From an uncultured Actinomycetota bacterium (GTDB lineage Bacteria > Actinomycetota > UBA4738 > HRBIN12), in contig CAWIUW010000003.1 in NCBI GenBank assembly GCA_963839395.1, forward strand, positions 40,393 to 104,392: 64,000 nt of DNA, read 5' to 3'. Shown here one piece after another: positions 11,244 to 34,118 of this stretch. The stretch's first letter is position 1. Each line of letters starts with the position of its first letter. The notes under the pieces are model-generated. The model ran no database searches, was not told the DNA's origin, and worked only from the letters and a program-made list of their open reading frames with translations. Both the position numbers and the translations under genes were made by a program.

Positions 11244-11311
11244 AGATACAAGGATGCGTGCGGTCGGGTCGCGGCGGAGGGGTCGATGGTCCTGGCTCTG
11301 GCGGGACCTGT

Positions 11312-12457
11312 TCAGGACGGGAACGTCGCTCGGACGGTCGTCCCTTCTCCAGGCGTGCTCTCGACCTGAAGGACTCCACCCAGGGACTCAACCCGCTGCC
11401 GAAGGTTGCTGAGGCCCATGCCCCAGGTCGTCATGTCGACGTCGAACCCCCGTCCGTCGTCGTCGACCTCGAGGAAGAGGCCGGCCTCTCCTCTCCGGAG
11501 TGAGACTCGGCACGTGGTGGCAGCCCCGTGCCGGCCGACGTTCGAGAGTGCCTCACGCACGAGCTGCACCACATCGCCGGCGCGCGAGGCGAGCTGGGAC
11601 GCAGCCTCGCTGTCCACCTCGACGACCGTCACGACGCCCGAGCGGGCGCCGAACTCGCTCGCCATCTCCTTGAGCGCCTGATCGAGCTGACGGTCCGCCA
11701 GGATCCCCGGTCGGAGGCCGAAGATGTAGTTGCGCAGGTCTCGGATCGAGTGGTCGACATCCTCGACGGCGGCTTCCAGGCGACGGGCCATATCCTCGTC
11801 GCTGGATGCGGCCGCCAGTCCTTGCAGGCTCATCCCGACGGCGAAGAGCGACTGGATGACGCCGTCGTGGAGCTCTTTGGCGATCCGTTCACGCTCCTCA
11901 AGGACCTGGAGCCTCTGGAGCTCCCTGCTCTTGCGCTCGGTCTCGTCGTAGAGGCGTGCGTTCTCGACGGCGATCGCGGCCTGGGTCGCGAGGACGACAA
12001 GGACACGTTCGTCCTCCTCGTCGAACGTCTCCGCGCCTTGCTTATCAGTGAGGTAGATGTTCCCGAACACCCTCCCGCGTCCGCTGACCGGAGCTCCGAG
12101 GAGGGACTTCATCGGGGGGTGATTCGGAGGGAACCCGACCGACCGCGGATCCGCGCTGATATCGGGGATCCGGAGAGGCCGGGCCTCGGTGATCAGAGCC
12201 CCAAGGAGCCCGTGGCCGGTCGGAGGGTCGCCGAGGGCAGCGCGTTCCTCCGGGGTGATCCCCACCGTGATGAATTCCTCGATCAACCGGCCGTCGGGCG
12301 TGAGGACGCCCAGCGCCCCGTACCGGGCATCGGTGAGATCGACCGCCAGCTCGACGATGCGGAGGAGCACCGTGTCGAGCGAAAGCTCCGAGGCAGCGAG
12401 GATCATGCCAGCCTCGATCAGCCGTCGATCTCCGTCTCTGGCGTCCCCTCCGAGCAT
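11312..12457 (-). CDS. GAF-domain sensor histidine kinase (HisKA_3 type, DevS/DosT-like)
   Basis: ORF of 381 aa. It has an N-terminal GAF-like region (VLLRIVELAVDLTDARYGALGVL...NIYLTDK) and an H-box ERERIAKELHDGVIQSLF. It also has the N-box REALSNVGRHG, G1 DDDGRGF and G2 GMGLSNLRQRVESLGG. Confidence 0.9.
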   Translation of the reverse strand: MLGGDARDGDRRLIEAGMILAASELSLDTVLLRIVELAVDLTDARYGALGVLTPDGRLIEEFITVGITPEERAALGDPPTGHGLLGALITEARPLRIPDISADPRSVGFPPNHPPMKSLLGAPVSGRGRVFGNIYLTDKQGAETFDEEDERVLVVLATQAAIAVENARLYDETERKSRELQRLQVLEERERIAKELHDGVIQSLFAVGMSLQGLAAASSDEDMARRLEAAVEDVDHSIRDLRNYIFGLRPGILADRQLDQALKEMASEFGARSGVVTVVEVDSEAASQLASRAGDVVQLVREALSNVGRHGAATTCRVSLRRGEAGLFLEVDDDGRGFDVDMTTWGMGLSNLRQRVESLGGVLQVESTPGEGTTVRATFPS

Positions 12458-14827: not shown

Positions 14828-15729
14828 CGGGGCTCCTCGCGACGATCCCGGTAGTACTCGAGGAAGAGCTCCTCGAGCCCCGGCTGCCGGCTCTGGAGAT
14901 CCACCACGTCGAAGCGAGCGACCGCCTTGATGAGCGCGTCCACCGGGCCTCGGACGGTGCACCGCATCACGTCGCCGTGGATCTCGAGGTCGGTAACACC
15001 AGATACGTTGGCGAACGCGTCTGGAGGGACCGGATGGGCGAAGTGGAACTCCATCACCCGGACCGCCTTCGCTCGAAGATCGCCGACATCCTCCACATCG
15101 ATCAGTCGTCCGTCGTCGATGATCCCGATCCGATCGCACGTTCGCTCCACCTCCGGCAGGACGTGGGAAGACAGGAAGACCGTCCCGCCGCGAGCCGACG
15201 TCTCCAGCACGAGGTCGTGGAATTCCCGCTGGACGATGGGGTCGAGACCCTGCGTGGGTTCGTCCAGGATCAGCAGGTCCGGCTCATGCATCAGGGCCTG
15301 GATCAGTCCGAGCTTCTGGACGTTCCCGTGGGAGAGCGAGGAGATCCGAGGTTCGAGGTCGCATGCGAGGCGATCCGCCAAACCGTCGAAGGAAGAAGGG
15401 CCGAGTCCGCGGAGCGCGGCGAAGAACTCGAGATATCCCCGGCCCGTCATCCGCCGATAGGCGCTGAAGTCACCGGGCAGGTAGCCGACGCGGCGATGGA
15501 TCTCGAGGACGTCACGGTGGGAATCCAGTCCGAGCAGGGAGGCGTTCCCCACCGTCGGGCGAAGGAGATCCAGCATCGTTCGGATCGTCGTGGTCTTACC
15601 AGCACCGTTGGGACCGAGGAATCCGAAGACCTCGCCGGCCTCGACCTGAAGGGACACCCCCTCGATCCCACGGCGCACGCCGTACCGCTTGGTGAGCCGA
15701 TCGAGAACGATCGCGGCGCCGGGAGTCAT
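14824..15729 (-). CDS. ABC transporter ATP-binding protein
   Basis: ORF of 301 aa with Walker A GPNGAGKTT, signature LSHGNVQKL and Walker B LLILDEPTQGLD. Its start overlaps the FNT stop as ATGA. Confidence 0.92.
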   Translation of the reverse strand: MTPGAAIVLDRLTKRYGVRRGIEGVSLQVEAGEVFGFLGPNGAGKTTTIRTMLDLLRPTVGNASLLGLDSHRDVLEIHRRVGYLPGDFSAYRRMTGRGYLEFFAALRGLGPSSFDGLADRLACDLEPRISSLSHGNVQKLGLIQALMHEPDLLILDEPTQGLDPIVQREFHDLVLETSARGGTVFLSSHVLPEVERTCDRIGIIDDGRLIDVEDVGDLRAKAVRVMEFHFAHPVPPDAFANVSGVTDLEIHGDVMRCTVRGPVDALIKAVARFDVVDLQSRQPGLEELFLEYYRDRREEPR

Positions 15730-16595
15730 CGCGCCACCCCGGCCGGTCTCAGGTACACGAACCAGTAGACGAGCCCGACAAGCACCGAACCACCGACGAC
15801 ATTGCCCAGCGTGGATGCCGCGAGGTTGATCGAGAGCCCCGTGAGATCCAAACTCGCGAGTTCACGTGCGGGAAGGTGCGCCGCCGCGACGACCTCCTCA
15901 TTCTCTCGAAGCACGAGACCCATCGGGATGAAGAACATGTTCGCGATGCTGTGCTCGAAGCCCGCGGCGACGAACGCCGAGATCGGGAAGATGATCGCCG
16001 CGATCTTGTCCAAGACCGTACGACCGCCGGTCGCCAGCCAGACGGCCAGGCAGACGAGCGCGTTCGCGAGGATCCCGCGTCCGAAGACCGCCGTGAAGGA
16101 GAGATCGGTCTTCGCCGCAGCGGTCGAGAGGGCGGTGACACCGACCGCGGCGTCCCCCAGCCGCCACCACTCAGCGAGCGTCACGATGACGACCACCGAG
16201 AGGGCGCCGAGGGCGTTCCCCACATAGACGATCGCCCAATTCCGGAGGAGACGACCAAGGGGCACGTGTCCCGCGACCACGCTCATCACGATCAGGTTGT
16301 TGCCGGTGAACAGCTCCGCGCCCGCAACCACGACCAGGATCAATCCCAGCGAGAACGCCACGCCGGCCAGCCATCTGGTCGGGCCGAAGCCGAGCGAGGA
16401 CCCCGTGGCCACGGTGGTGGAGAGCACGGCGCCCAGCGCGATGAACGCTCCGGCGACGACTCCGAGCACGAACGTCGTGAATGTCGGCGCGTTCGCCTTC
16501 GCCACGCCTCGCGTCTCGACGAGGGTGGCGATCTCGTTCGGAGAGAAGGCGTCGTGGCCGGTCATCGGGTGGGGCGTGGTTCCGCTCACGGGCAC
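15726..16595 (-). CDS. Formate/nitrite transporter (FNT) family channel
   Basis: ORF of 289 aa. It has about 6 TM segments and FNT-like text (LGVVAGAFIALGAVLS, ELFTGNN, FEHSIANMFF). Confidence 0.88.
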   Translation of the reverse strand: MPVSGTTPHPMTGHDAFSPNEIATLVETRGVAKANAPTFTTFVLGVVAGAFIALGAVLSTTVATGSSLGFGPTRWLAGVAFSLGLILVVVAGAELFTGNNLIVMSVVAGHVPLGRLLRNWAIVYVGNALGALSVVVIVTLAEWWRLGDAAVGVTALSTAAAKTDLSFTAVFGRGILANALVCLAVWLATGGRTVLDKIAAIIFPISAFVAAGFEHSIANMFFIPMGLVLRENEEVVAAAHLPARELASLDLTGLSINLAASTLGNVVGGSVLVGLVYWFVYLRPAGVAR

Positions 16596-16663: not shown

Positions 16664-18674
16664 TCAGGGGATCGGCCTAGGGATCGTCCCGATCGCGTAC
16701 GGGCGCATCATCTCGTTGTCCTCGTGCTCAACGATGTGGCAATGCCACACGAAGAGCCCGGGGACCTCGAAGCGTCCTCTTACCCGAGTCACCTCGCCCG
16801 GGTAGGCGATGACCGTGTCCTTGAAGCCGGTTTCCCAGATCTCGGGCGGTCGGCTCGTACCCGTCGGGAGGTTGTCCGGACCGAGCGCCTGGCGGTCAAC
16901 CACCTGGAAGTGGATCTCGTGGATGTGGATCGGGTGCGCGTCCACCGTGAGGTTCTGCAGCTCCCAGATCTCGGTAGCGCCGACGTCGGGGTTCTCGGTG
17001 ATGGGGGCGGCCCACTCGAGATCCTGTGCCGTCCCGGACACGGGATCGAAGCGTGCCGAGCTCCGCCTCGGCCGGACCGTCGAAGAACGCGGACGGCCGC
17101 TCGAGCAGAGCCAGGGAGCGCGGTGTCCCACCCGCCAGGGGGGTGATCGGTGGGAGCTCCAGGAACTGTGGTGGAGTGCTGGGGTCCGGGCCGGTCGCTC
17201 CCACGACGCGGAACTCCATCACCTGTCCGGTCGTCTCCGCGTCCGATGCCGTCGCGGGGAACCCGCCGAACGGCTCGTCTGGGCCCAGGTTGAGCAGGAG
17301 GACGGAGGTCCCCACCGGGACGTTGGTGAAGTCCACGATCACATCCGCTCGCTCGGCCAGGCTCAGGAGCAGTACTCCGCCCAAGCCACCCACATCGAGT
17401 TCGTTGATCCTGATCGGAGCCGGTAGGAAGCCGGCCTCCGTGCCGATCTGCCACACGTCGACGTTGGGATCATCGAACTTGAGGACCAGGAACCGCGAGT
17501 TGCAGCCGTTCAGGAAACGGAACCGGTAGCGTCGCTGTTCCACCTGTAGGAACGGCCAGGTCTTCCCGTTGACCACCATCGTGTTCCCGAAGAACTCGGG
17601 GTTCCAGATAGGCGAGAGGTCGGTCTTGGGGATGTAGCCGGGACCTCAGCCGTCGCGCCGTCGAAGAACTCTCGGCTGTCGGGGTAGAAGAGCGATCCGT
17701 CGTCGTTGAACGAGCGATCCTGCACGGCGATCGGTACTTCGTAGTACACGACGCCTGAGGCGTCGCCGTGCGCGGGCGCCGGCCCGGGAAGGATCGCCTT
17801 CGTCCCGAAGCGGGAGTCGATCACTTGGTCGTCGGGGCCGCCCCGGACGAGGTAGAAACCGGCCGGCCCGGCGTAGACATTGACCCGGGTCATCCCAAGA
17901 GTGTGATCGTGATACCAGAGCGTCGACGCTCGATGGTCGTTCGGGTATTGGAACACGGCGCTGCCTGGGGTCCAGGCCTGCCCGAACTTACGTTGGGCTT
18001 TCGTTCTGAAGTACTTGTACCAAGTCCCCACGTCCGCGAAGCGGGGGTCGATGTTGGAGGCTCTGGGCAGGTACCAGGCCTCCGCGTAGCCGTCGCTCTC
18101 GTCTCCGACGCCGGCGGCACCATGGAGGTGGGTCACGATCGGTACGGGCCCGGTGTAGGGGCCCGGCGTGTCCGAGAACGTCGGTCGCATGTCGCGGCCA
18201 TCCCTACCGCCCGGCGGGTTGGCCCAATGCAGGGTGGGGTCCACGGGGAGCAGGTGGGGGAGGAAGCGTCCATCCGGATGGGACGAGGTCATTCACCCAT
18301 TTGACGCGAACCGGAGACTGCGACTTGGCCTCGATCGTGAAGGCCGGATAGTTGAAGGTCGCGGGGTGGTTCACGGAGCCGTAGCTCCACACGGTGGTCG
18401 CCGGATGGGGTGCTGTGAGTATCTGCTGCCGGAACTGTCGCACCGCGATCTCGTAGTAGTCGATGTCCGCCCCCCGGTGGTGGAGCTTGCCTGTCCGAGG
18501 CATGGCCGGTGGGATGACGAGCGGCGTCCGGTACTTGACGATGGCCGAAGGGTCGAGGGTCCCCCACGTTGGCGGCTGAGCCAGGATCGGCGACAAACGA
18601 CCGTTCCAAGGAAGCATGAGCGAGGCGCCGCTCAGGGCACTTGCCTTCAGGAATCGCCGTCGGGAGATCGGCAC
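16664..18674 (-). pseudogene. TAT-secreted three-domain multicopper oxidase (CotA/CueO/bilirubin-oxidase-like), three frame shifts
   Basis: Four collinear fragments make up the gene. ORF 18204-18674 has the twin-arginine signal MPISRRRFLKASALSGASL. ORF 17510-18292 has THLHG and WYHDHTLGMTRVNVYAGPAGFY. ORF 16896-17579 is the third fragment. ORF 16664-17131 has HPIHIHEIHFQVV and WHCHIVEHEDNEMM. Confidence 0.8.
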
Positions 18675-19486: not shown

Positions 19487-22157
19487 ATGGACGAAAGCGA
19501 GACCCCGAAGAACCTCGAGAAGGATGTCGTCCTCCGTGACGGTCGGACGGTACATCTGCGACCCGCCAGGTCAGAGGATCAAGGAGCCGTCGAGGACTAC
19601 CTGATCGGACTCTCGGACGAAAGCAGGAGACTGCGCTTCTGGTCGACATCGATCGACGTCACGGACCTAGCCGCCAAGGCGGTCAAGCCCGAGTATCCGG
19701 ACCACCTCACGCTGCTCGCGCTCACGGGCGGCGACGCCGGGCACGTGGTGGGAGGCGCACAATTCATCCGGGAGAACGCGACCAGAGCGGAGCTCAGCGT
19801 GAGCGTCTCCGACGAGCTCCAGGGGTCGGGTCTCGGATCGCTTCTGGTCGGCAACCTGGTCGATGCTGCGTACGAAGCGGGGATCGGGATGCTGGAAGCC
19901 CAAGTCCTCCCCGAGAACCACCGGATGATCGACGTATTCCGCAAGACAGGCTTCCCCATCTCCATCCGCGCGAAGCCCGGTGCCGTTTCGGTCGAGATCG
20001 CCACGGCGCCCACAGAGGACGCCGTCGCGCAGTTCGAGGAGCGGGAGGCGGTGGCGGCGGCGAGCGCCGTGCGCACCATCCTGGAACCGGAGACCGTCGC
20101 CGTGATCGGGGCTTCCCGGGACGAGGCGAGCATCGGTGGGCGCCTCCTGCGGAACCTGCTCACCCATCCCTTCAAGGGCACCGTGTATCCGGTGAACCCG
20201 TCGGCTCCGGCGGTCCAAGGGGTCAAGGCGTACGCGACGATCGACGATGTTCCCGGTCCGGTCGACGTCGCGTTCATCGCGGTGAAGGCGCCGCTCGTCG
20301 CCGAGGTCGCCGAATCGTGCGGTCGGAAGAGGCGTGCGAGGCCTCGTCGTGATCTCGGCCGGCTTCGCGGAGACAGGAGGCGAGGGCCCGGCTCGTCAGC
20401 GAGAGCTCGTCGAGATCTGCCGCCGATGGGGGATGCGGCTCGTGGGGCCGAACTGCATGGGAGTCGTCAACACGGATCCGGACGTGGACCTGAACGGTAC
20501 TTTCGCGACGATCGTGCCGGAGGCCGGATCGGTTGGGTTCCTGTCGCAGAGCGGCGCAGTCGGCATCGCCGTGATGAGCGAGACCGGCCGGAGGGGCATC
20601 GGCTTGTCTTCGTTCGTCTCCGTCGGGAACAAAGCCGACATCTCGGGGAACGACATGCTCAGCTACTGGGAGGATGACGCGCGCACCAGCGTCATCCTCC
20701 TGTACCTCGAATCCTTCGGGAACCCGCGCCGTTTCTCGCATCTCGCGCGCCGGATCGGCAAGCGCAAGCCGATCGTCGCCGTGAAGAGCGGCCGCACCCA
20801 GGCAGGCCAGCGCGCCGCGGGATCGCACACCGGATCTCTCGTCGGCGCGTCCGACCTCACCGTCGACGCGCTGTTCCGGGAGAGCGGCGTGATCCGCACC
20901 GACACACTCGCCGAGATGTTCGACGTCGCGATGCTGCTCGCGACCCAGCCGTCGCCCATCGGCAACCGCGTCGGGATCGTCACGAACGCGGGTGGGCTCG
21001 GGATCCTCTGTGCCGATACGTGCGAGGCGAACGGGCTCGTCCTGCCCCCTCTGTCCCAGGAGACCGTGGAGGAGCTTCACACCTTCCTGCCGTCCGAGGC
21101 GTCGACGGGGAACCCCGTCGACATGATCGCGTCCGCGACTGGTCAGGACTTCGAGCGAGCCGTGCTCGCCGTCGCGAGCGATCCGGACGTCGACATCGTG
21201 ATCGTGATCTACATCCCTCCTCTCGAACAGCATGTCGAGGATGTTGCCCGGGGGATCGGACAGGCTATCGGCAAGCTCGAGGGCGGCACGCCGGTTCTCA
21301 CGAGCTTCATGTCGGGGGGACAGGTCCCCGTCGACCCCGAGAGCGGGCGGGGATGGTTCCCCTCGTTCGCGTTCCCAGAGCAGGCCGCCATCGCGGCCGC
21401 TCGGGCCGTCGAGTACGGACGATGGCGAGACCGCGCCCCTGGCACCGTGCGTCGCTTCACCGATGTCCGGTCCGATGAGGCCGATGGGATCTTGGCCTCA
21501 GCCCTCTCCCGAGGGAGCGGCTGGTTGGAACCCGAGGAAGTCGACGGGTTGCTCGACTGCTACGGCATCCCGGTTGCCATGTCGAAACTGGCGATCACCC
21601 CGGAGGAGGCGGGGCGTTACGCGGCCGAGTTCGGGGTCCCGGTGGCGCTCAAGGCCATCGGCCCGTTGCACAAGAGCGACGTCGGGGGTGTTCGGCTGGG
21701 TCTCCAAGGTGAGGAGATGGTTGTCGCACATGCGATCGAGATGCAAGAGCATCTCCGAGCGATCGACGAGCCGCTGACGGGATTCTCCGTCCAGGAGATG
21801 GTCGAAGGCGTGGAGGTGCTCGTTGGCGTCACGCACGACGATGTCTTCGGGCCGATCGTCGCGTGCGGCGCGGGTGGCACGATCGCGGAACTCCTGAAGG
21901 ACGTCGCCGTGCGCGTTGCACCGGTCACGGACACGGCTGCTCGGGAGATGGTTCGTTCGCTGAAGACGTTCCCGCTGCTGGAGGGCTATCGCGGAGCGCC
22001 GCGCGCGGACGTTCCTGCCCTCGAAGAGGTGATCCTTCGGGTCAGTGCCCTTGCTTCGGACCACGAGGCGGTCCGGGAGATGGACTGCAACCCGGTGATG
22101 GTCGGGGAAACGCGAGCTGTCGTCGTCGATTCCCGCGTGCGGGTGGCGGCTTCCTAA
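19487..22157 (+). CDS. Pat-like bifunctional protein: N-terminal GNAT acetyltransferase + NDP-forming acyl-CoA synthetase-like region (one frame shift near 20325)
   Basis: ORF 19487-20677 has the GNAT text (VSVSDELQGSGLGSLLV) and a CoA-binding start (VAVIGASRDEASIGG...VYPVNP). The protein continues across AESCGRK|GVRGLVVISAGFAE into ORF 20334-22157 (607 aa), which has succinyl-CoA-synthetase-like and ATP-grasp text. Confidence 0.85.
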
Positions 22158-22248
22158 CGGCTCGGCGGACGCAGGCTCATCGTCGCCGGAGCCGAGACCT
22201 CCGAGGAAGGAGGACGCGTCCCTCGAGTCGCCCACGCCGATGCGTTGA

Positions 22249-22680
22249 TCACGGAACGAGGAGCACAGGGACATCCGCGTGATGAAGAACGTGTTCGGAA
22301 ACGCTCCCTATCCATCGTTCGACTCCACGCACCCCTCGCCGTCCCAGCACGACCAGCTCCGGAAGCCAGTCCCCGATCTCGGCAACGATCTCATCGGTCG
22401 GGTTACCGAATCGATGAGCGATCTCGACGATGTGACCGCTGCTTTCGAGTAGCCCTCGGGACTGATCCGTGAGTCGATGGACATCCTCCGCCACGCGTCT
22501 CACTCGTTCGGCCTCATCGCCAAGGGGTATGTCGTCGGGAACCAGCGAATACGGATACTCGCTGTACGACAGGACCGTGAGGAGCCTCACCTGGTCTCGG
22601 CCCGGGACGAGCAACGTGGAGGCGTGGTCACAGGCTCGGAGCGCGGGCTCGGAGCCGTCCGTCGCGAGTAGCACCTTCAT
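22249..22680 (-). CDS. Universal stress protein (UspA family)
   Basis: ORF of 143 aa with MKVLLATDGSEPALRACDHA and LVVLGRRGVRGVERWIGSVSEHVLHHADVPVLLVP. Confidence 0.9.
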   Translation of the reverse strand: MKVLLATDGSEPALRACDHASTLLVPGRDQVRLLTVLSYSEYPYSLVPDDIPLGDEAERVRRVAEDVHRLTDQSRGLLESSGHIVEIAHRFGNPTDEIVAEIGDWLPELVVLGRRGVRGVERWIGSVSEHVLHHADVPVLLVP

Positions 22681-22793
22681 CGCTGGTCACCTGGTCCCGA
22701 TTTCCGTCTCCCACTATCCCTGGCGGATCGAGTCGCATCAGACTAATCAGGCAAGCGGTTCGTTGCGTGGACCGCGGGCGACTTGCGCCGAGC

Positions 22794-22877
22794 CACGAGA
22801 TGGACTGCAACCCAGTGATGGTGGGGGAGAAGTCAGCGGTCGCCGTGGATCCCCGCGGAGGGTTTCAGGTTTCCTAG
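22794..22877 (+). pseudogene. Relic of the 3' end of a Pat/ACS-like gene
   Basis: This stretch reads HEMDCNPVMVGEKSAVAVDPRGGFQVS*, with TAG at 22875-22877. It is collinear with the true C-terminus REMDCNPVMVGETRAVVVDSRVRVAAS* at 22077-22157. No upstream coding continuation exists. Confidence 0.6.
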
Positions 22878-22890
22878 CCTCGCGGGCGCC

Positions 22891-23267
22891 CTCGTCCTCC
22901 CGCCGTTGGCCCCCCACCGCGTGAGCCGTTCGACCCTGAACGGGGGGTATCCCCGCGTGGAAGATGACGTCGAGAAGGAGGATCCGATGGCGCGATGGGA
23001 GGATTTCAGGAAGTGCCCCGGCTGCGGGCTCGACATCGCGACCGGTGAGGGCGAGCGGAGCTGCCGTGGGGAGACTGTCCGTACCTCCCCGAAGAGCTGG
23101 ATGTCTATTGCGACACGTGCCGATTCAACTTCTTCACGGGTGAAGGCAATCCATCCTGTGAGGACCCCATCACGTGTGAACACGCGGCCGAGCCCCTCCG
23201 ACACGTCGAGAACGTACGCACGTGGATCGCCCGCACGACGGCAGGTCGTGGGACGGGAAGCGTCTGA
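22891..23267 (+). repeat. Direct repeat copy 1 (leader + small Cys4 gene)
   Basis: It aligns by eye with 26092-26454. Shared blocks include gccgttcgaccctga, g.gga.gatgacg..gagaagg.gga.ccgATGGCGCGA, ggtgagggcgagcggagc, and tgcgacac.tgcc. Confidence 0.7.
22987..23267 (+). CDS. Small Cys-rich zinc-ribbon-like protein, copy 1 (one frame shift near 23064)
   Basis: ATG 22987 follows GAAGGAGGA. The protein reads MARWEDFRKCPGCGLDIATGEGERS.. and then, shifted by one nucleotide, WGDCPYLPEELDVYCDTCRFNFFTGEGNPSCEDPITCEH...GSV*, with TGA at 23265-23267. The long ORF 22906-23853 is an artefact. Confidence 0.55.
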
Positions 23268-23419
23268 CGTTTCGGATCCGAGGACGTCCGAGGCGTTGGC
23301 CTCATCGCTCCCCGCCAACCCCCATCTGAACGGTCCGAACGTCACCCAGATGCCCGCCGTTCGGCCCCCTCGCCGCCCACCCCTTCGGCTCACACTGTGG
23401 GCGAGTGAAGGAGGGGGCC

Positions 23420-23830
23420 ATGGACGGGAACGACGAGACACTCTCGCTGGTGCTCTGCTCGGGGACCGACGACCGGTTGACCGGGGCTGCCGTGTTGGTC
23501 GTCGGGGCCGCCGCGATGGAGCGCAAGGTCGAGATCCTGCTGCAGTTCTGGGCGCTCGACGCGTTCCGCGCCGATCGCATCACGAAGGACCATGGACTGT
23601 CGCCCGAGGCGGGGACCGAAGGACAGACGCTCTGGGAGTGGCACGAGGGTATGCATTGGAGCGAGATGCTCCGGCAGGCGAAGGAGATCGGCGACGTGTC
23701 GATCCACGCGTGCTCGCTCTCGATGGATCTGCTGAAGATCACTCCGGACGACCTGGATCCGCTGGTGGACGACGTGCGCGGCGTGGCCGCGTTCCTGGCC
23801 GCCGCCGGCGGTGCGATCACGTTCGTGTGA
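23420..23830 (+). CDS. DsrE/DsrF-like (DsrE_2/YrkE-type) sulfur-relay protein
   Basis: ATG 23420 follows GAAGGAGGGGG. The protein reads MDGNDETLSLVLCSGTDDRLTGAAVLVVGAAAM... and has the conserved Cys motif HACSLSMDLL. Confidence 0.8.
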   Translation: MDGNDETLSLVLCSGTDDRLTGAAVLVVGAAAMERKVEILLQFWALDAFRADRITKDHGLSPEAGTEGQTLWEWHEGMHWSEMLRQAKEIGDVSIHACSLSMDLLKITPDDLDPLVDDVRGVAAFLAAAGGAITFV

Positions 23831-23849
23831 GGAGACGGAGGTGGCAGCG

Positions 23850-24092
23850 ATGACACAGGTGACCGATGTGACCCGGTCCATCGACGCTCGGGGGATGCCC
23901 TGCCCGGGCCCGCTGATGAGTCTGATCGGAGCGATCCGGGAGGGATCGATCGGCGATGTGATCGAAGTGCTCTCGACCGATGCGGGCTCGCTGACCGACA
24001 TCCCGGCATGGGTGACGAAGGCGAGCCACGAGCTCGTCTCCGTGACCGAGACGGACGGCGGGACGAGCTTCGTCGTGCGGAAGATGAGGTAA
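23850..24092 (+). CDS. TusA-like sulfurtransferase
   Basis: ATG 23850 follows GGAGGTGG. The protein is 80 aa and has the active-site motif DARGMPCPGPLM. Confidence 0.85.
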   Translation: MTQVTDVTRSIDARGMPCPGPLMSLIGAIREGSIGDVIEVLSTDAGSLTDIPAWVTKASHELVSVTETDGGTSFVVRKMR

Positions 24093-24096
24093 CCCG

Positions 24097-25261
24097 ATGC
24101 CGGCGAGGATCGTGGTGCTCGGCGGCGGGGTCGGGGGTACCTTGACGGCCAACCTGCTCTCGAAGGAGCTCGGCCGGGAAGCGCAGGTGACGGTGGTCGA
24201 TCCGACCGGCATGCACGTCTATCAGCCCGGCTTCCTGTACCTGGCGCTGGGCGAGGCGAACGGACGATGGCTCGCGCGCGACGAGCGCACGTTGCTCCGG
24301 CGTGACGTCGATCTCGCGATCGAGCGGGCGGTCCGGATCCATCCGGACGCGGGCAGCGTCCAGCTGGAACGAGGCGGCAGCCTGGACTGGGACTACCTGG
24401 TGATCGCGACCGGCGCGCGGCTGGTCCCGGAGCAGATCCCCGGACTCGCCGAGGGAGCGTTCGGCTTCTACTCGCTGGAGGACGCCGAGCGCCTCCGCGA
24501 GGAGCTCAGGCGCTTCCGGGGGGGACGGGTCAAGGTGGGCGTGGCCGGCATCCCATACAAGTGCCCGCCGGCGCCGGTGGAGTTCGTCTTCATGCTCGAC
24601 CAGTTCCTGCGGCGCCGCGGTTTGCGCGAGCGGAGCGAGATCACCCTCCTTTCCCCGCTGAACCGGGCGTTCACGATCGAGAGCGCTTCGAAGCTGATCC
24701 AACCGATCATGTCGGCACGGGGGATCGCGCTCGAGACGTTCTTCAACGTCGAATCGGTGGATGCCTCGGCCGGCGTCGTGAGCTCGCTCGAGGGCGACAA
24801 GGCCGAGTACGACCTGCTCGTGCTCGTGCCCCCGCATCGGGGACAGGGAGTGATCGACGCCTCCCATCTGGGCGACCCGGGAGGGTGGATCCCCACAGAC
24901 CGCCACACGCTCCAGGTGAAGGACCAGGAACGGATCTTCGCGATCGGGGATGGGACGGACCTCCCGATCTCGAAGAGCGGGTCCACCGCGCACTTCGAGG
25001 CACCCGTGGTGGCCAGCCGGATCGCGTCACTGGTTCGAGGCACGGCGCCGCGGTCGAACTACGGCGGCCGCGTCATGTGCTTCCTCGAGACCGGCGACGG
25101 CCGCGCGACCACGCTGCGGTTCGACTACGAGCATCCGCCGGTCCCGCCACAGCCGAATCGGATGTGGCACGCCGCGAAGTGGCTGTTCAACCGCCTGTAC
25201 TGGGAGACGGTGCCCCAGGGACGGCATCCCCGAGCGGGCGATGCGCGGAGGAAAGGAGTGA
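24097..25261 (+). CDS. Sulfide:quinone oxidoreductase-like FAD-dependent oxidoreductase (3' frame shift near 25225)
   Basis: ORF 24097-25365 has the Rossmann motif IVVLGGGVGG and Cys motifs IPYKCPPAPVEF and VMCFLETGDG, plus IFAIGDG. The natural end ...YWETVPQGRIPERAMRGGKE* is in the frame of ORF 24950-25261. The stop at 25259-25261 sits 3 nt before the next ATG. Confidence 0.85.
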
Positions 25262-25264
25262 GCG

Positions 25265-25498
25265 ATGAGCGCGACGATCGTGACGACGCTGGACATGAAG
25301 GGGTTCGCCTGCCCGCTGCCGATCGCGAAGACGGCACAGGCGATCCGGGAGCTCGCCGTCGGTGACCTGCTCGAGGTCCTGGCGACGGATCCCGGGTCGG
25401 TCCCCGATTTCGCGGCGTGGTCCGGCTCGACCGGCCACGAGCTCGTCGAGCGTTCGGAAGAAGACGGCGTGTTCCGATTCCTGATCAGGAAGGGGTGA
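25265..25498 (+). CDS. TusA-like sulfurtransferase
   Basis: ORF of 77 aa with the motif DMKGFACPLPIAK. The RBS GGAGGAAAGGAG lies upstream. Confidence 0.85.
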   Translation: MSATIVTTLDMKGFACPLPIAKTAQAIRELAVGDLLEVLATDPGSVPDFAAWSGSTGHELVERSEEDGVFRFLIRKG

Positions 25499-25503
25499 GC
25501 GAC

Positions 25504-26035
25504 ATGGCGGCAACGGCGGAAGCCGTTCGAGAAGCGACCGAGCGAGAGGCTCCACCACGTCCCGCATCGGAAGCTGGTGATCATGGCCTGGAGCGGCGAT
25601 CTCGACCGAGTCTGGCCGACCTTGATCCTCGGTACCAGCGGGGCTGCGATGGGGATGGAGACCACGATCTTCTTCACCTTCTGGGGGCTCTTCCCGCTCG
25701 TGAAGGACGACGTGCGGATCACCGGCGACAACTGGATGCAGAAGCTGCTGTCCACGATGGACCGGCCCGGCCTCGAGCACGTGAAGTTGGGGAAGATGAA
25801 CTTCGCCGGCGCGGGCCCGGCGATGATGCGGAAGCTCGCGAAGGAGCATCACGTCGCGAGCCCGGAGGAACTGATCGAGCTCGCGAAGGATCTCGGGGTG
25901 AAGCTCGTGCCGTGTCAGATGACGATGGATCTGCTGGGTCTGCATCGTGAGGATCTGATCGACGGCCTCGAGGAGCCGGCTGGCGCCACGACGGCGTTGG
26001 TCGAGGCCCAAGACGCGATCACGCTGTTCATCTGA
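25504..26035 (+). CDS. DsrE/DsrF-like (DsrE_2/YrkE-type) sulfur-relay protein (probable 5' frame shift)
   Basis: ORF 25577-26035 reads (K)LVIMAWSGDLDRVWPTLILGTSGAAMGMETTIFFTFWGL and has the conserved Cys motif VPCQMTMDLL. An RBS plus ATG 25504 (MAATAEAVREATEREAPP) is in another frame, so a shift is required before 25577. Confidence 0.78.
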
Positions 26036-26091
26036 CGGGCTACGAACGTGCCCTGTCCGATCCGGTCTCTCAAAGAGGGAGCCTCAGAGGC

Positions 26092-26454
26092 CGGCTCCTC
26101 CCCTTCGCCGTTCGCCCTGGGCCGCGTGGGCCGTTCGACCCTGACCGGGAGTGTCCACGCGCGGAGGATGACGCTGAGAAGGTGGAACCGATGGCGCGAG
26201 GAAGGGACTTCAGGACCTGCCACCGTTGCGGGATCGACATCGCGGTCGGTGAGGGCGAGCGGAGCTCATGGTGGGACGGGGCGGATCTCCCCCTGGATCT
26301 GGACGTGTACTGCGACACATGCCGGCTCCAATTCTTCATGTGCGAGGCCAATCGTCCGGGCGACCCCGCCAGCATCCGCGGTTACGAGGTCGGGCCGCTC
26401 TCCCGCGTCGAGAACAGGCGGAAAGAGATGGCGCGCCCACGCGACCGTTCGTAG
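26092..26454 (+). repeat. Direct repeat copy 2 (leader + small Cys4 gene)
   Basis: See copy 1. Both the roughly 95-nt non-coding leader and the coding part are conserved. Confidence 0.7.
26191..26454 (+). CDS. Small Cys-rich zinc-ribbon-like protein, copy 2
   Basis: The protein reads MARGRDFRTCHRCGIDIAVGEGERSSWWDGADLPLDLDVYCDTCRLQFFMCEANRPGDP.... It carries two CxxC pairs and is a paralogue of 22987-23267. Confidence 0.6.
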   Translation: MARGRDFRTCHRCGIDIAVGEGERSSWWDGADLPLDLDVYCDTCRLQFFMCEANRPGDPASIRGYEVGPLSRVENRRKEMARPRDRS

Positions 26455-26461
26455 CGTTCGC

Positions 26462-27883
26462 CTACTCCGAGACCTCGCGCAGGATCCGATCGATCACACC
26501 GAGATGCGCGCCGAGGAAGTGCGGGGGCAAGAAGCGGTTCCTGACCCGCTCACGGGCCGCATGGCCGACCGCTTGGGCGAACCCGAGATCCGCGATGAGC
26601 GATGAGATCGCCTTCCCCAGCGAGGGCAGGTCTGTCGGTGCGATCAAGAGACCGCTTCGGCCGTCCATGATCTGATCCTGGATCCCTCCGACGCGGCTGG
26701 CGACGACCGGCCGCTCTTTCCACATCGCCTCGGTCACCGTGAGACCGAAGCCCTCCGCGAGGCTCTTCTGCACCACCACGTCGACCTTGCGCTGCAGGGC
26801 GTTCACCACGACCGCATTCTCGATGCGGTCCTCGACCGGGAGGTTCACGAGATGGATCCGTGCGCGCGGTCTCGCCGGAAGCCGCTGCCATGCCGCGAGG
26901 GCCTCGGCGAAGACCTCTGCGCCTTCCGGATCGTCTGCGACGGAGGCGGTCGCCGGCCCGACCAGCAAGAGGTGAGCGCCGAGGTTCGGCCGCACATGTC
27001 GCGCGAACCCCTGCAGGACCCCGACGGGGTCTTTCAGTCGGTCCCAACGAGATACCTGGGCAACGAGGGCGGCATCCACGGGGACCGGCCCCTCTTCGAC
27101 TCTCTCCGCGTCTCGATGGACGCGAACCGAACCGACGCCATCGATCTCGACACGAGCCTCTGATGGCTCAGATACCGTCAGAACGCCGGCGGCACCGAGG
27201 ATGGCATCCGCCTCCGAGGCTTCTATGTCAGCGTTCTTCGGCGATACGGGATCGATGCAAGGTGGGATCACGGAGACCTTCCGCCGGTCGAGCCCTCTCC
27301 AGATGTACGCGCGCCGCGAGAACACCGACGCGTGCGCCCGTTCGATGTCGGGGCGCAGGAATTCCCACGCGGAGCGAACGATGTCGGTCGGGGTGTCAAC
27401 GCCGACGTGACAAACCCATTCCACGCCTAGCCCCGTGTCTGCGAGTGGGCCGGCGAGGCCGGCGGTCTGAGGATCGTGCAGGATAGCGATGTCGCCGGGG
27501 CTGACGAGATCGAGCAGCGGGGCGAGCTCCCTGCGAAGCACGCCCATGTACATCTCCCGCTCCTTCTCCCCGAGGGGGCCGCCGTCACCCTCGGATCCGT
27601 GCAACCGGTTGTGGAGCCGCTTCGTCACCCAGAAGAAGTCCTGGTCTCCCTCGACCACGATCCATCGGCACCGGATCCCTCCCTCGATCAGATAGCCGAG
27701 CAGTTGATGGAGTAGCTCGGAGACTCCTCCGCCTTCAGAGGTCGAGTTCACGTGCCAGAGCGTTCGGCCTTCGAGTCGGTTGGCGACCGTGCCGAGGACC
27801 GATCGGAACTTCTCGAGATGGGACGGCCGGACCAGTCCTTCAAGCTGGGCGAGCGATCGTGTCTCGAGCGCGACTTCCCTCAA
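26462..27883 (-). CDS. GT4-family glycosyltransferase, trehalose-synthase (TreT)-like
   Basis: The start is TTG 27883, 8 nt after GGAGGG, giving MREVALETRSLAQLEG. Other text includes WHVNSTSEGGGVSELL, VSRWDRLKDPVGVL and SLAEGFGLTVTEAMWKERPVVASRVGGI. The 5' 250 codons of ORF 26462-28633 are Arg/Asp-rich antisense text of the next gene. Confidence 0.85.
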   Translation of the reverse strand: MREVALETRSLAQLEGLVRPSHLEKFRSVLGTVANRLEGRTLWHVNSTSEGGGVSELLHQLLGYLIEGGIRCRWIVVEGDQDFFWVTKRLHNRLHGSEGDGGPLGEKEREMYMGVLRRELAPLLDLVSPGDIAILHDPQTAGLAGPLADTGLGVEWVCHVGVDTPTDIVRSAWEFLRPDIERAHASVFSRRAYIWRGLDRRKVSVIPPCIDPVSPKNADIEASEADAILGAAGVLTVSEPSEARVEIDGVGSVRVHRDAERVEEGPVPVDAALVAQVSRWDRLKDPVGVLQGFARHVRPNLGAHLLLVGPATASVADDPEGAEVFAEALAAWQRLPARPRARIHLVNLPVEDRIENAVVVNALQRKVDVVVQKSLAEGFGLTVTEAMWKERPVVASRVGGIQDQIMDGRSGLLIAPTDLPSLGKAISSLIADLGFAQAVGHAARERVRNRFLPPHFLGAHLGVIDRILREVSE

Positions 27884-28030
27884 ACAGCATCCCTCCAGGT
27901 CAGCGGATGATGTCAGGAACGAGCCGTGAAGGCCGCGATCGGTCCCGTTCGAAGCGGGACCGTCGGCCCCCCGTTGCCAAGGACCCTGACCTACGCTCGG
28001 ATCGTCACGAGATGACGAGAGGTGAGATCG

Positions 28031-28903
28031 ATGGTGGCGGATCTGGTTCAGGAGGATAGACGGCATGACGTACTCGTTGCTCGGGATGTCGAGGGTCAGA
28101 GAGCGAAGCCCGGTCTTCGCGCCGCCTACGGGCTTTCCGGGGTGATCGCGGTCCTGATGGTGGTGGCATCGGCAGCCGGTCTGCTCATCGACGGGCTGTA
28201 TCGCGATGGTCCTTGGGCTCGAGAGGCCCTTCGAGGAGGGGATCTGACGACGATGGTGGTTGCGGTGCCGATCCTCGTCACGTCGCTGCTGCTCGCGAGA
28301 CGAGGTTCCCGCGCGGCTCAGGCGGTGTGGCTCGGCGCGCTCGCGTACTCGCTCTACAACTACGCCTACTATGTCTTCGGGGCGGAGTTCAACGACATCT
28401 TCGTTCTGCACATCGCGCTGTTCGCGCTGTCGATCATCACGCTCGTACTTGCAGTGGCGAACGTCGACGTCGACGCGATCGCAGCTCGGTTCCGGGGAGT
28501 CAGGGGGACCAAGTGGATCGGGGGATTCCTCGCGGTCGTGGGAGCGGTCCTGGGCGGGCTCTGGGTATTCCTCGCGATCCGCTTCGCGATCACCGGTGAG
28601 CTGATGGCCGACATCCCGACCGACGGGCTCCACCTCGTGTTGGCGATCGACACGTCGTTGTTGGTCCCGGCGCTCGTGATCGCCGGGGTGCTGCTCTGGC
28701 GGCGCACCCCCGACGGGTACGTGTTCGGAACGGCGATGGCTGTCATGGGCGCCATGTACCAGGTGAACCTCTTGATGGCGGGCCTGTTCCAGGCGAACGC
28801 GAACGTGCCGGGGGTCGAGGCATTCCCGTTGGAGGGCATCGTGCTCGCAACCGGTTTCGCGCTGGCCATGCTGGCGCTCCTACTACATCGCGAGCGGAGA
28901 TGA
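28031..28903 (+). CDS. Polytopic membrane protein (hypothetical)
   Basis: ATG 28031 follows GAGAGG. The protein has about 7 hydrophobic segments. No motif was recognised. Confidence 0.72.
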   Translation: MVADLVQEDRRHDVLVARDVEGQRAKPGLRAAYGLSGVIAVLMVVASAAGLLIDGLYRDGPWAREALRGGDLTTMVVAVPILVTSLLLARRGSRAAQAVWLGALAYSLYNYAYYVFGAEFNDIFVLHIALFALSIITLVLAVANVDVDAIAARFRGVRGTKWIGGFLAVVGAVLGGLWVFLAIRFAITGELMADIPTDGLHLVLAIDTSLLVPALVIAGVLLWRRTPDGYVFGTAMAVMGAMYQVNLLMAGLFQANANVPGVEAFPLEGIVLATGFALAMLALLLHRERR

Positions 28904-33569: not shown

Positions 33570-33716
33570 CTACTTTGCGCACTGTCGGCACTGCCAGAGG
33601 TGCGCCCCGCATAGACGGCGGCAGTTGAAGTGGCCACCTCTTCCCTGAGGGTCAGACGGCTCCGTGACCTCGGGACCTATGGCCTGAGCGGCGCATCCTG
33701 GAGGAGGGATGCTGTG

Positions 33717-34118
33717 ATGGACACGTTGGAAGGAGTGACCATGGAAACGACGAAACGAGTCGACATTGACAAGACGATCGAGGAGGCGAAGGACGCCATC
33801 ACCGTCCGCCGCGTCTTCGGCGAGCCGTATGTCAAGAACGGCGTGACGGTGATCCCGGCTGCCCGCGTCCAAGGGGGCGCCGGTGGCGGCTCGGGTGAGG
33901 CCCCAGGCGGGGAAGGACGTGGAGGAGGGGCTGGGTTCGGCCTCAGCGCGAAGCCGGTAGGCGCCTACGTGATCAAGGGAGACGAGGTCTCCTGGCGTCC
34001 TGCGGTCGATGTCAACCGCGTGATCCTCGGGGCTCAGCTTGTCACCTTGGTCGCCTTGTTGGTTGCAAGGTCCATCGTCCGGTCGCGCCCGGCCCGGACG
34101 GACGAAGACATCGGCTGA
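33717..34118 (+). CDS. GerW/YtfJ-family protein
   Basis: ATG 33717 follows GGAGGAGGG. The text VFGEPYVKNGVTVIPAARVQGGAGGGSG...GFGLSAKPVGAYVIKGDEVSWRPAVD is typical of the YtfJ/GerW family. A C-terminal TM is present. Confidence 0.7.
   Translation: MDTLEGVTMETTKRVDIDKTIEEAKDAITVRRVFGEPYVKNGVTVIPAARVQGGAGGGSGEAPGGEGRGGGAGFGLSAKPVGAYVIKGDEVSWRPAVDVNRVILGAQLVTLVALLVARSIVRSRPARTDEDIG

Follow-up and report, generated by a model that had tools for sequence, protein, structure and literature searches.

In the CstR-controlled cst operon of Staphylococcus aureus, an inducible sulfide-stress operon, a sulfide:quinone oxidoreductase (SQR) is joined with TusA-like or DsrE-like carrier modules, together with the multidomain sulfurtransferase CstA and the persulfide dioxygenase CstB. 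In sHdr sulfur oxidisers such as Metallosphaera cuprina, DsrE3A, DsrE2B and TusA constitute a sulfur relay, with a single conserved cysteine in each. A further arrangement is found in the verrucomicrobial Methylacidiphilum fumariolicum SolV (MFUM_v2_0219-0221), where a type III SQR, a TusA and a DsrE2-like protein lie on one strand; this SQR(III)-TusA-DsrE2 operon is co-transcribed, induced by H2S and read as serving sulfide detoxification or oxidation into the quinone pool (PMC10205796). On the regulatory side, DevR/DosR of Mycobacterium tuberculosis and OsdR of Streptomyces coelicolor share a palindromic GGGxC-N4-GxCCC core: the DevR half-site reads GGGAC, and its boxes, arranged in tandem and in phase with the helix, are at -42.5 and -63.5 (PMC3177182), and the OsdR consensus AGGGCCGATCGGCCCT is experimentally bound in S. 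coelicolor (PMC5069765). In promoters of this type, two or more boxes stand in tandem and in helical phase, with the proximal box near -42, and the targets include Usp, HSP20, CBS and P-type ATPase genes and the regulator's own neighbourhood.

Here we consider a 64,000-nucleotide (64-kb) stretch of DNA from an uncultured soil bacterium of the Actinomycetota, hereafter the window, in which an SQR operon lies between two copies of a small gene with its leader. Our preferred reading, to which we assign a probability of roughly 70%, places the region in a dormancy or gas-stress regulon island of the DosR/DevR (OsdR) type, where a unit of promoter plus gene appears to have been duplicated beside a sulfide-oxidation operon. 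The features are as follows.

10042-10716, minus strand: DevR/DosR/OsdR-type NarL-family response regulator, candidate box binder (Pfam Response_reg and GerE)
11312-12457, minus strand: DosS/DosT-like GAF (haem-type) histidine kinase (Pfam GAF, HisKA_3 and HATPase_c)
22900-22913: distal (degenerate) putative DevR/OsdR-type box of the copy A promoter, CCGCCGTTGGCCCC, 2 mismatches to GGGNCNNNNGNCCC
22923-22936: proximal putative DevR/OsdR-type box of the copy A promoter, GAGCCGTTCGACCC, 1 mismatch, starting at -62 from the ATG
22985-23267, plus strand: copy A of the small Cys-rich gene (8-Cys type), its reading frame interrupted by a 1-nt deletion at 23064/65
23331-23367: degenerate tandem boxes, GGTCCGAACGTCAC ... 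CCGCCGTTCGGCCC, directly 5' of the first DrsE_2 gene
23420-23830, plus strand: DrsE_2-family protein A, Cys in HACSLSMDLL (Pfam PF13686, 51 bits; match from 23405/23420)
23850-24092, plus strand: TusA A, CPGP (Pfam PF01206, 76 bits; ORF from 23811/23850 onward)
24097-25261, plus strand: SQR-like flavoprotein, type III-like (Pyr_redox_2, SQR_III_seleno, human SQOR)
25265-25498, plus strand: TusA B, CPLP (Pfam PF01206, 80 bits)
25504-26035, plus strand: DrsE_2-family protein B, Cys in PCQMTMDLL (Pfam PF13686, 149 bits; literal ORF from 25577)
26105-26118: distal (degenerate) putative box of the copy B promoter, TCGCCGTTCGCCCT, aligning in every column with its copy A counterpart
26128-26141: proximal putative box of the copy B promoter, GGGCCGTTCGACCC, perfect core, PWM score 16.3
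26191-26454, plus strand: small Cys-rich gene, copy B, 87 aa, derived, only CxxC...CxxC kept (translation and comparison)

The five core genes are a conserved operon. Their assignments and order, first proposed in a sequence-only reading of this DNA, are upheld by Pfam, and all the cysteine motifs listed there, including KCPPAP and MCFLETGDG of the flavoprotein, are present in the translations. The start of DrsE_2 A at 23420 was set by homology with the syntenic locus L001, whose orthologues of TusA A and DrsE_2 B are 80 and 175 aa long. The identical five-gene order is found again in at least seven other Actinomycetota loci (L005, L006, L018, L062, L085, L086 and L087; SQR 78-96% identical), and metatranscriptome contigs of ~94%-identical relatives, which may include contaminating DNA, cover DrsE_2-TusA-SQR (one of 1722 nt) and SQR-TusA-DrsE_2 (972 nt) and also run from DrsE_2 into the copy B region. 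The order had been called palindromic; as gene order this stands, and the mirror symmetry is limited to it, given that the two DrsE_2 proteins are 27% and the two TusA proteins 43% identical. The flavoprotein is SQR-like and type III-like with both redox cysteines kept, in agreement with its earlier placement among SQR-type enzymes: the ORF 24097-25365 scores 73 bits with Pyr_redox_2 (plus a weak FCSD_central match in Pfam), and the flavoprotein scores 354 bits with NCBIfam SQR_III_seleno, type III being the closest-scoring, and matches human SQOR at 145 bits with both redox cysteines aligned.

As compared by description with the SolV operon, the window differs in a second, divergent DrsE_2-TusA pair 5' of the SQR, which generates the mirror order, in its actinomycetotal host and in its proposed control via DevR/OsdR boxes. 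It differs from the cst operon in having its carriers as individual small proteins and a two-component system as the proposed regulator, and in that genes for a CstR/SqrR-type persulfide sensor, a rhodanese or a persulfide dioxygenase are absent within +/-10 kb. The small DsrE-family and TusA proteins, with a single conserved cysteine each, resemble the sHdr relay, yet no hdr-like or lbpA genes lie nearby and the DrsE_2 proteins (19.7 and 86.3 bits) fall below the NCBIfam DsrE2 equivalog cut-off of 210 bits. The lack of neighbouring rhodanese, persulfide dioxygenase and Hdr genes, pointed out before, is confirmed by Pfam within +/-10 kb of the L001 locus and among the window ORFs scanned. The SQR would oxidise H2S and deliver electrons to the quinone pool, and the sulfane sulfur would pass as protein persulfide onto the conserved cysteines of the two TusA and two DrsE_2 carriers.

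The operon is flanked on both sides by a direct repeat of ~350 bp (about 22900-23264 versus 26105-26451), close to the ~370 bp described previously, each copy comprising ~90 nt of leader followed by one of the small Cys-rich genes. The leader is indeed as conserved as the coding part, since copies A and B share 76% of positions -90 to -1 in the window and, in the relative L003, 81%, versus 79% and 78% for the first 78 coding nucleotides and 55-69% for the remaining CDS. Upstream of -90 the copies are at background (42-51%), and the repeat boundary falls at the distal box. Third codon positions are just 57% identical overall; within the first 50 codons, synonymous third positions (codons with conserved amino acids) are 81% identical. 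Copy A, earlier taken as one gene with CPGC...CDTC, is not a single ORF in the window: CPGC lies in frame 1 and CDTC in frame 3, the reference for the 1-nt deletion being the intact 93-aa ORF of L003. Logan contigs from four metagenomes that span this site all carry an extra G or A, and the deletion probably arose in assembly; either mis-assembly or erosion accounts for the state of copy A in the window. Further frame-breaking indels lie at 20330, splitting an ACS gene, at 25225, where a 1-nt insertion extends the literal flavoprotein ORF to 25365 and creates a false 36-aa SQR tail overlapping TusA, and at about 25530-25560, shifting the N-terminal frame of DrsE_2 B.

The suggestion that the leader holds a shared regulatory element has proved sound, and the element is conserved family-wide, beyond the two copies. 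It consists of tandem palindromic boxes, GGGNC-N4-GNCCC, 23 bp apart, as are the two boxes of copy A. The core with at most one mismatch lies upstream of 78 of 89 Cys-family genes, whereas shuffles give about 18.5 of 89 and only 8.6% of random 65-nt tiles contain it; box starts cluster at -62 to -65 and -85 to -87, and a TA-starting hexamer follows the box by 22-24 nt in 31 of 76 cases. Box and position are kept upstream of members 62-90% identical in protein, across about 80 species-level genomes. Over 1.16 Mb of loci, which were gathered via the Cys gene and therefore sample genomes with a bias, the spacing of box pairs shows a sharp peak at exactly 23 bp (68 pairs); 46 remain once Cys-gene upstream regions are removed, versus 0-16 for any other spacing from 10 to 60. 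DrsE_2 accounts for 5 of the 44 genes behind such pairs, which also precede genes for Usp, HSP20, CBS, P-type ATPase, an FNT transporter, AlaDH and cupredoxin/multicopper oxidase. In L062, L086 and L087, good tandem boxes stand right before the operon's first gene, the position occupied in the window by the degenerate boxes before DrsE_2 A (the proximal one starting at 23354, -66 from the ATG), which are presumably weak secondary sites. Across the whole window neither the core pattern (9 observed, 5.4 expected) nor tandem pairs (9 versus 10.4) are enriched, and the placement of matches alone is telling, not their number. Counting against the promoter reading, the distal boxes of the window clade are degenerate, with 2-3 mismatches, and GGAnGATGAC, the block conserved there where a -10 element is expected, misfits TANNNT.

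The motif GGGCCGTTCGGCCCT matches the OsdR consensus and also the DevR half-site. In all likelihood the leader acts at the DNA level, as a promoter bearing predicted DevR/OsdR-type boxes in tandem, and not as RNA. The proximal box would occupy the site of the -35 element, roughly -41.5 from the inferred transcription start, which is where phosphorylated dimers of the NarL family typically activate. The activator is likely the DevR orthologue encoded, with its haem-GAF kinase, 11-13 kb upstream of the operon. The best PDB match of the regulator is M. tuberculosis DevR (3c3w, 186 bits), with an identical recognition helix, EKTVKNYVS; the kinase best matches DosT (2vzw, 146 bits) and DevS GAF-A and keeps the HPPM histidine and the LYLTDK tyrosine. 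In about six further loci the Cys gene has a DevR or DosS orthologue within 8 kb. The predicted system differs from the described ones in its 23-bp spacing (21 bp at M. tuberculosis tgs1), in a box centre that is usually GTTC or CTTC and in a kinase (381 aa) with one GAF domain, whereas DevS and DosT have two. It differs also in its predicted targets: our literature search returned no report of a sulfide-oxidation operon or the 8-Cys family as a DevR/OsdR target.

Could the boxes instead serve as operators for a repressor of the Rrf2 family, which senses Fe-S or redox state? In 14 of 80 loci the gene directly upstream of the Cys gene, about 90-110 nt away and in the same orientation, encodes an Rrf2 protein, with the boxes in the intergenic region between the two, and L085 has an Rrf2 gene about 5.5 kb downstream of its sulfur operon. 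We nonetheless regard this as unlikely. Rrf2 sites are usually longer, AT-richer inverted repeats, whereas the 5-4-5 palindrome, the tandem phasing and the targets (Usp, HSP20, CBS, ATPase) are of the DevR/OsdR type; moreover, tblastn finds no Rrf2 homologue in the 64-kb window, where DevR and DosS orthologues are present.

The small proteins form an unannotated family of ~90 aa with eight conserved cysteines (478 clusters), of which copy B has kept four, so that the earlier Cys4 description does not fit the family; the view that they lie outside described families holds, with no match in Pfam, NCBIfam, PDB sequences or Foldseek. The family is probably metal-binding: two CxxC pairs about 29 residues apart (CPGCGYD ... 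CPxCRFN) in a small protein resemble rubredoxins and zinc ribbons, and by this resemblance tetrahedral metal site(s) are likely. It departs from them in an additional Cx4C...Cx6C set and a long C-terminal helix, with the rubredoxin and zinc-ribbon models of Pfam below significance (best E-values 0.0078-0.4) and no PDB sequence or fold match. It had been proposed that these proteins serve the sulfur module as regulators, sulfur carriers or metal partners, the bracketing reflecting functional coupling or a mobilising recombination cassette. In favour of this idea, both sides rely on cysteine-based chemistry, the Cys gene lies immediately 5' of the operon in the window clade, L005, L006, L062 and L086 and divergent from it in L018, and TusA or DrsE_2-like genes follow it in L048 and L072. 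However, the sulfur module lies within 8 kb in only about 4-6 of 80 family loci, about 70 of 80 lack DrsE_2, TusA and SQR over that distance, and the module also occurs without the gene (L085; none is called in L087); the Cys proteins are therefore not dedicated partners of the module. Many genomes, moreover, carry several copies in unrelated contexts, the operon is intact where copy A is half deleted (L001 and L002) or copy B absent (L005), and copy B has shed half its cysteines. As for excision, no junction was seen among the contigs examined, and the single 'goes back 3077' contig (depth 2.3) arises because the leader is repeated; what relatives show instead is decay of copy A in some and a missing copy B in L005. 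Dedicated partnership or a cassette is thus improbable.

Still less probable is that the leader is transcribed and controls the small Cys gene in cis as RNA, in the manner of a riboswitch or structured 5' UTR. The leader does match the coding 5' end in conservation, a 5-bp hairpin with a GUUC loop can be drawn for its core, and RNAalifold proposes a nested structure; but Rfam yields nothing at the gathering threshold or at E<=1, shuffled sequences fold equally well (z = 0.35 and -0.41), the alignment shows no covariation (term +0.77, unfavourable), and the would-be pair 3/10 is often C-A, A-G or G-G. Identical boxes also stand before unrelated genes and in divergent intergenic regions, in arrays of two or three with a fixed 23-bp phase, and the motif is a published protein-binding site (PMC5069765). 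Finally, that the leader similarity is a mere functionless residue of recent duplication or gene conversion is hardly credible and largely refuted: the highest identity does run without interruption from the leader to about coding nucleotide 150, and the 81% at synonymous positions fits a younger or converted 5' segment, but the box is conserved in place family-wide and the repeat ends at the distal box.

Returning to the regulon-island reading, the promoter-plus-gene unit would ancestrally have stood 5' of the operon and been copied to its 3' side in the window's lineage, after which copy B would have lost its four cysteines; hypoxia or gas stress, the conditions tied to regulators of the DosR/DevR type, would be the presumed inducing signal. 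The 8-Cys family appears to be among the commonest targets of tandem-box promoters in these bacteria, and lies beside the sulfur operon just sometimes.

The leader in front of each of the two small Cys-rich genes that flank the sulfur operon (copies A and B) is best explained as a predicted DevR/OsdR-type promoter. The sequence-only reading, whose observations were essentially sound and whose interpretation was sound in part, had described a flanking direct repeat with a leader conserved as well as its coding part. This is borne out: each repeat copy starts some 90 nt ahead of its small gene and ends close to the stop codon, the leader is 76–81% identical between the copies, as are the first 78 coding nucleotides, the remainder is 55–69% identical, and sequence farther upstream than the leader shows background identity. 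Across the family of these small proteins, a palindromic core, GGGNC-N4-GNCCC (the box), precedes the start codon, occurring in 78 of 89 upstream regions as against 8.6% of random tiles. It usually begins 62–65 nt before the ATG, often has a second core 23 bp upstream (start to start), and yields the family-wide matrix GGG[CTA]C[GC]TTCG[GA]CCCT. The proximal box of copy B, GGGCCGTTCGACCC, has a perfect core, that of copy A, GAGCCGTTCGACCC, carries one mismatch, and the distal boxes of both copies are degenerate (2–3 mismatches), like the "secondary" sites of M. tuberculosis DevR promoters (PMC3177182). Ahead of the first DrsE_2 gene of the window, a further degenerate pair occupies the homologous position. 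The genes and further boxes of the window discussed here are as follows.

10042-10716, minus strand: DevR-like response regulator
10740-11300, minus strand: gene of about 167 aa between regulator and kinase, without a Pfam match, found also in the related locus L001 (281-784)
11312-12457, minus strand: DosS/DosT-like kinase
15726-16595, minus strand: FocA/FNT-family channel
16664-17131, minus strand: multicopper-oxidase fragment, lying with the channel between the two-component system and the Usp and acetyl-CoA synthetase genes
18885/18908: well-placed box pair before a Usp gene
22249-22680, minus strand: Usp gene
22985-23267: small Cys-rich gene, copy A
23405-26035, plus strand: five-gene sulfur operon
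26191-26454: small Cys-rich gene, copy B
27956-27969: single perfect box, GGGACCGTCGGCCC, in a divergent intergenic region
33649-33685 (33649/33672): tandem box pair at 23 bp, one mismatch in each, before a GerW/YtfJ-like gene (33717-34118, plus strand)

The strongest single result is the histogram of box spacings. Over 1.16 Mb of related loci, 68 box pairs stand exactly 23 bp apart, compared with 0–16 pairs at each other spacing between 10 and 60 bp, and the peak stays at 46 pairs with the Cys-gene upstream regions removed, the locus set for these statistics having been collected through the Cys gene. Over the whole window the core is not significantly enriched; only placement and the multi-locus histogram are informative. 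Behind the 23-bp pairs lie DrsE_2 as the first operon gene (5 of 44) as well as genes for Usp, HSP20, CBS-domain proteins, P-type ATPase, FNT transporter, alanine dehydrogenase and cupredoxin/multicopper oxidases, a target set with the flavour of the mycobacterial DosR regulon. Arrays of three boxes in 23-bp steps, found in four related loci (L010 15335-15394, L031 469-528, L034 2857-2916 and L043 5688-5747), are reminiscent of the DevR promoter classes with multiple boxes. The box pair of the GerW/YtfJ-like gene is conserved in locus L004, at 17851, and the single box at 27956 is flanked by a minus-strand TreT-like trehalose synthase gene and by an unannotated 290-aa membrane protein (28031-28903), with TACGCT following 22 nt after the box.

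The box motif matches both the consensus to which OsdR of S. coelicolor was shown experimentally to bind, AGGGCCGATCGGCCCT (PMC5069765), and the DevR half-site of M. tuberculosis, G4G5G6A7C8T9, a species whose DevR promoters characteristically have two or more boxes arranged in tandem and in helical phase, the proximal box lying near -42.5 (PMC3177182); the spacing in the window's family differs by 2 bp from the mycobacterial DevR example. Of 76 family promoters, 31 have a TA-starting hexamer 22–24 nt past the box, which, taken as a guide, would make the proximal box overlap the -35 region, at about -42. The window's clade departs from the usual hexamer, having GGAnGATGAC at the -10 position. 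A sigma-70 promoter scan of 22600-26700 returned no promoter-like site, and an intrinsic terminator scan of the same interval returned two terminator-like sites, both within genes.

The response regulator of the window scores 186 bits to DevR (3c3w), has an identical recognition helix (laEKTVKNYVS), and aligns the D of vvvmDvrl with the phospho-acceptor D54 of DevR. In DevR, DNA is read by K179, N183 and K182, the last of which is named in PMC5999986. The neighboring kinase comprises GAF, HisKA_3 and HATPase_c domains and differs from DosS/DosT in having one GAF domain and a length of 381 aa. It scores 146 bits to the GAF-A domain of DosT (2vzw) and conserves NHPPM and IYLTDK, which contain the haem His and the distal Tyr, the equivalents of the proximal H149 and the distal Y171 of DevS. 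About six further loci have a DevR or DosS orthologue no more than 8 kb from the Cys gene. In L001, a tandem box pair (3036) separates the genes for FNT and Usp; channels of the FNT family transport formate, nitrite or hydrosulfide, and a link of the channel to sulfide is conceivable.

A serious contender, as an alternative or additional regulator of the Cys gene, is an Rrf2-family protein. In 14 of 80 loci (L009, L011, L025, L032, L033, L038-L041, L059, L060, L075, L078 and L079), a co-oriented gene of this family (IscR/NsrR/RirA-like, 93–96 bits) stands about 90–110 nt upstream of the small Cys gene, an adjacency that hints either at a second regulator or at a role of the Cys protein linked to Fe–S or NO. 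An RNA element in the leader, by comparison, fares poorly: Rfam was empty at the gathering threshold for the whole window and at E ≤ 1 for 22600-26700, RNAalifold returned a positive covariation term for seven leaders, the folds of single sequences did not surpass those of shuffles, and the box is not an RNA hairpin because its would-be pairing positions (3/10) do not covary. We retain the DevR/OsdR-type promoter as the preferred reading of the leader.

What such promoters would control in the window is a variant of the known SQR–TusA–DsrE2 operon. Pfam recovers the proposed five-gene core (DrsE_2, TusA, Pyr_redox_2, TusA, DrsE_2), all the Cys motifs quoted for it are present in the window translations, and rhodanese, persulfide dioxygenase and Hdr-like genes are, as claimed, absent within 10 kb. 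The mirror symmetry is real as a gene order; as a sequence palindrome it fails, since the DrsE_2 pair is 27% and the TusA pair 43% identical, identities low enough to mark the arrangement as one of old paralogues. The flavoprotein has the Rossmann fold of the FAD-dependent pyridine-nucleotide-disulfide oxidoreductase class (Pyr_redox_2, 73 bits, residues 4–289), with an N-terminal VVLGGGVGGT that conforms to GxGxxG, and its homologues are commonly annotated as sulfide:quinone oxidoreductase. In NCBIfam, SQR_III_seleno fits it best and over the full length (354 bits, E = 8.5e-106), a score below the cut-off of 525 bits that was set for the selenoprotein subtype. Among PDB sequences, which apparently include no type III structure, type II human SQOR is best (145 bits), followed by the Acidianus enzyme (90 bits) and by type I and FCSD proteins (55–75 bits). 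Both SQR redox cysteines are retained, KCPPAP aligning with human pvKCagAP and vmCfletG with tsCplvtG (phmmer, 8dhk); their human equivalents are Cys201 and Cys379, which carry the persulfide or trisulfide.

The carrier proteins are assigned at family level. TusA A and B score 76 and 80 bits against PF01206 (cut-off 28.6), carry N-terminal CPxP Cys motifs (MPCPGP and FACPLP), and miss the NCBIfam TusA equivalog cut-off of 78 (39 and 52 bits), which places them in the TusA family rather than among E. coli TusA equivalogs. Similarly, DrsE_2 proteins A and B pass the PF13686 gathering score of 25 (51 and 149 bits) and fall short of the DsrE2 equivalog NF047629 (cut-off 210; 19.7 and 86.3 bits), and are thus filed as DrsE_2-family proteins, not DsrE2 orthologues. 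In the proposed pathway, the predicted SQR would oxidize sulfide, and the sulfane sulfur would then be passed to the cysteines of TusA and DrsE_2. The same five-gene order occurs in seven related loci (L005, L006, L018, L062, L085, L086 and L087), with SQR identity down to 78%, and the closest relatives of the window (G+C about 67%) carry the label Actinomycetota and are metagenome-assembled genomes. In Methylacidiphilum a shorter form, SQR(III)–TusA–DsrE2, is an operon induced by H2S (PMC10205796). Metatranscriptome contigs of relatives, in which contaminating DNA is possible, span the gene boundaries of the operon, consistent with its genes being on one transcript. Two "ice metagenome" metatranscriptomes (X25 and X26) contain, for window positions 23483-26700, high-depth contigs of a relative about 94% identical over the operon (word depth up to about 240); they leave the copy A region uncovered at ≥88% likeness, and this population may resemble L001 in lacking copy A.

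Apparent single-base assembly errors distort several gene calls in the window, as judged against L001, L003 (a relative with intact copy A) and RNA/DNA contigs. Both small flanking genes described from the sequence are present, with the correction that copy A is not one intact reading frame here: one base is missing at 23064/65 relative to L003, whose copy A is a clean 93-aa gene. The contigs of relatives that span this site, from four independent metagenomes, are all in frame, with a G or an A added, and the closest contig in run X1 stops exactly there. A 1-nt insertion at 20330 breaks the ADP-forming acetyl-CoA synthetase/acetyltransferase, a single 889-aa gene in L001; another at 25225 removes the SQR C-terminus (...VPQGRIPERA...) and creates a false tail overlapping TusA; and the second DrsE_2 has a scrambled N-terminus (about 25530-25560). 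The frame-corrected flavoprotein C-terminus (WHAAKWLFNRLYWETVPQGRIPER...) agrees with relatives. Four genes broken within 6 kb (the synthetase, copy A, the SQR tail and the DrsE_2 B N-terminus) resemble, and suggest that the window carries, uncorrected long-read consensus errors; the copy A frameshift, treated as an artefact on this ground, is probably one.

The small proteins were said to match no described family, and Pfam, NCBIfam, PDB-sequence and Foldseek searches agree. With copy B as query, a word-indexed search found just four near-identical proteins; the parent family came to light when profiles were searched exhaustively and a family alignment then served as a second query, and it comprises 478 clusters (E ≤ 1e-3), each either without a name or labelled "hypothetical". 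Its members are about 90 aa long (range about 85–110), share GEGER, YLPEELDV, FTMEGNP and CEH, and follow the pattern C-x2-C ... C-x4-C ... C-x2-C ... C-x5-6-C with eight nearly invariant cysteines. All eight are found in frame-repaired copy A and its L003 orthologue, and copy B retains only C10, C13, C41 and C44, four being lost; copy A is a normal family member and copy B a derived form. Relaxing Pfam to E ≤ 10 brought only sporadic zinc-finger/IBR matches below threshold, the best profile match among PDB sequences was a chain of the PHD-finger protein PHF20L1 (E = 0.24), and Foldseek against PDB with the A-type model gave a best E of 4.8. That model (AlphaFold, 50 sequences, pLDDT 79) has a long C-terminal helix and short strands at the Cys knuckles, and the copy B model (4 sequences, pLDDT 51) is unusable. 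The expectation that the Cys gene accompanies such modules mostly fails, the module lying within 8 kb in about 4–6 of 80 species-level loci. Many genomes carry several copies, and the gene looks monocistronic, as a convergent gene often comes next. The Cys proteins are a new unannotated family for which sulfur metabolism is not the specific context; we would guess at a part in the dormancy response, as a redox or structural protein that binds Zn or Fe.

The bracketing repeat had also been proposed to allow excision or duplication of the module by recombination, an idea that found no supporting junctions and no sign of mobilization. Among relatives, the Cys gene precedes the operon without copy B in L005, L062 and L086 (L006 ends within the last operon gene and is uninformative on this point), both copies bracket it in the window, L003 and L004, and L001 and L002 keep copy B with the promoter and 5′ half of copy A deleted. 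From these arrangements, the bracket is a promoter-plus-gene unit duplicated in one lineage. The last 89 nt or so of the synthetase gene are themselves duplicated (22077-22165 and 22797-22885, 75% identical) around the Usp gene at 22249-22680, which is absent from L003 and L004, where the synthetase gene directly abuts the copy A leader. Thus Usp was inserted between the synthetase gene and copy A, either with target duplication or beside a decayed gene end. L086 (1018-10925) surrounds its five-gene operon with genes for Usp, P-type cation ATPase, Usp, CBS, 8-Cys, OsmC, HSP20 and pyruvate:ferredoxin oxidoreductase, with tandem or single boxes in most intergenic regions, and is a compact analogue of a dormancy island.

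Finally, H2S binds the ferric haem of M. tuberculosis DosS (PMC9062744), and we give a probability of roughly one in four to the overall reading that, in soil and sediment Actinomycetota, a DosS-like kinase senses sulfide and, via tandem DevR/OsdR boxes, induces the sulfide-oxidation and persulfide-relay operon together with the 8-Cys family. What is known of the DosR/DevR dormancy switch comes mainly from M. tuberculosis and Streptomyces, and a literature search found no paper in which DosR appears together with hypoxia, Actinobacteria and a sulfide:quinone enzyme. H2S is a respiratory poison that accumulates under hypoxic conditions. The motif and its phasing rule (GGGNC-N4-GNCCC, 23 bp) are usable for regulon prediction in metagenome-assembled genomes. 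Of most interest is the proposed link of a sulfide-oxidation operon to a dormancy regulator, which is directly testable: if the regulatory reading is right, the switch would directly control an SQR with its own protein sulfur relay, a new tie, and an abundant, wholly unannotated 8-Cys family would be a core regulon target. Were sulfide indeed the signal, dormancy would have in the 8-Cys protein a new redox component with Zn or Fe–S, sometimes paired with an Rrf2 sensor, and sulfide handling would be an integral, previously unrecognized arm of the actinobacterial dormancy regulon. The regulatory reading, if right, suggests that uncultured soil actinobacteria couple entry into hypoxic persistence to the removal or use of H2S.
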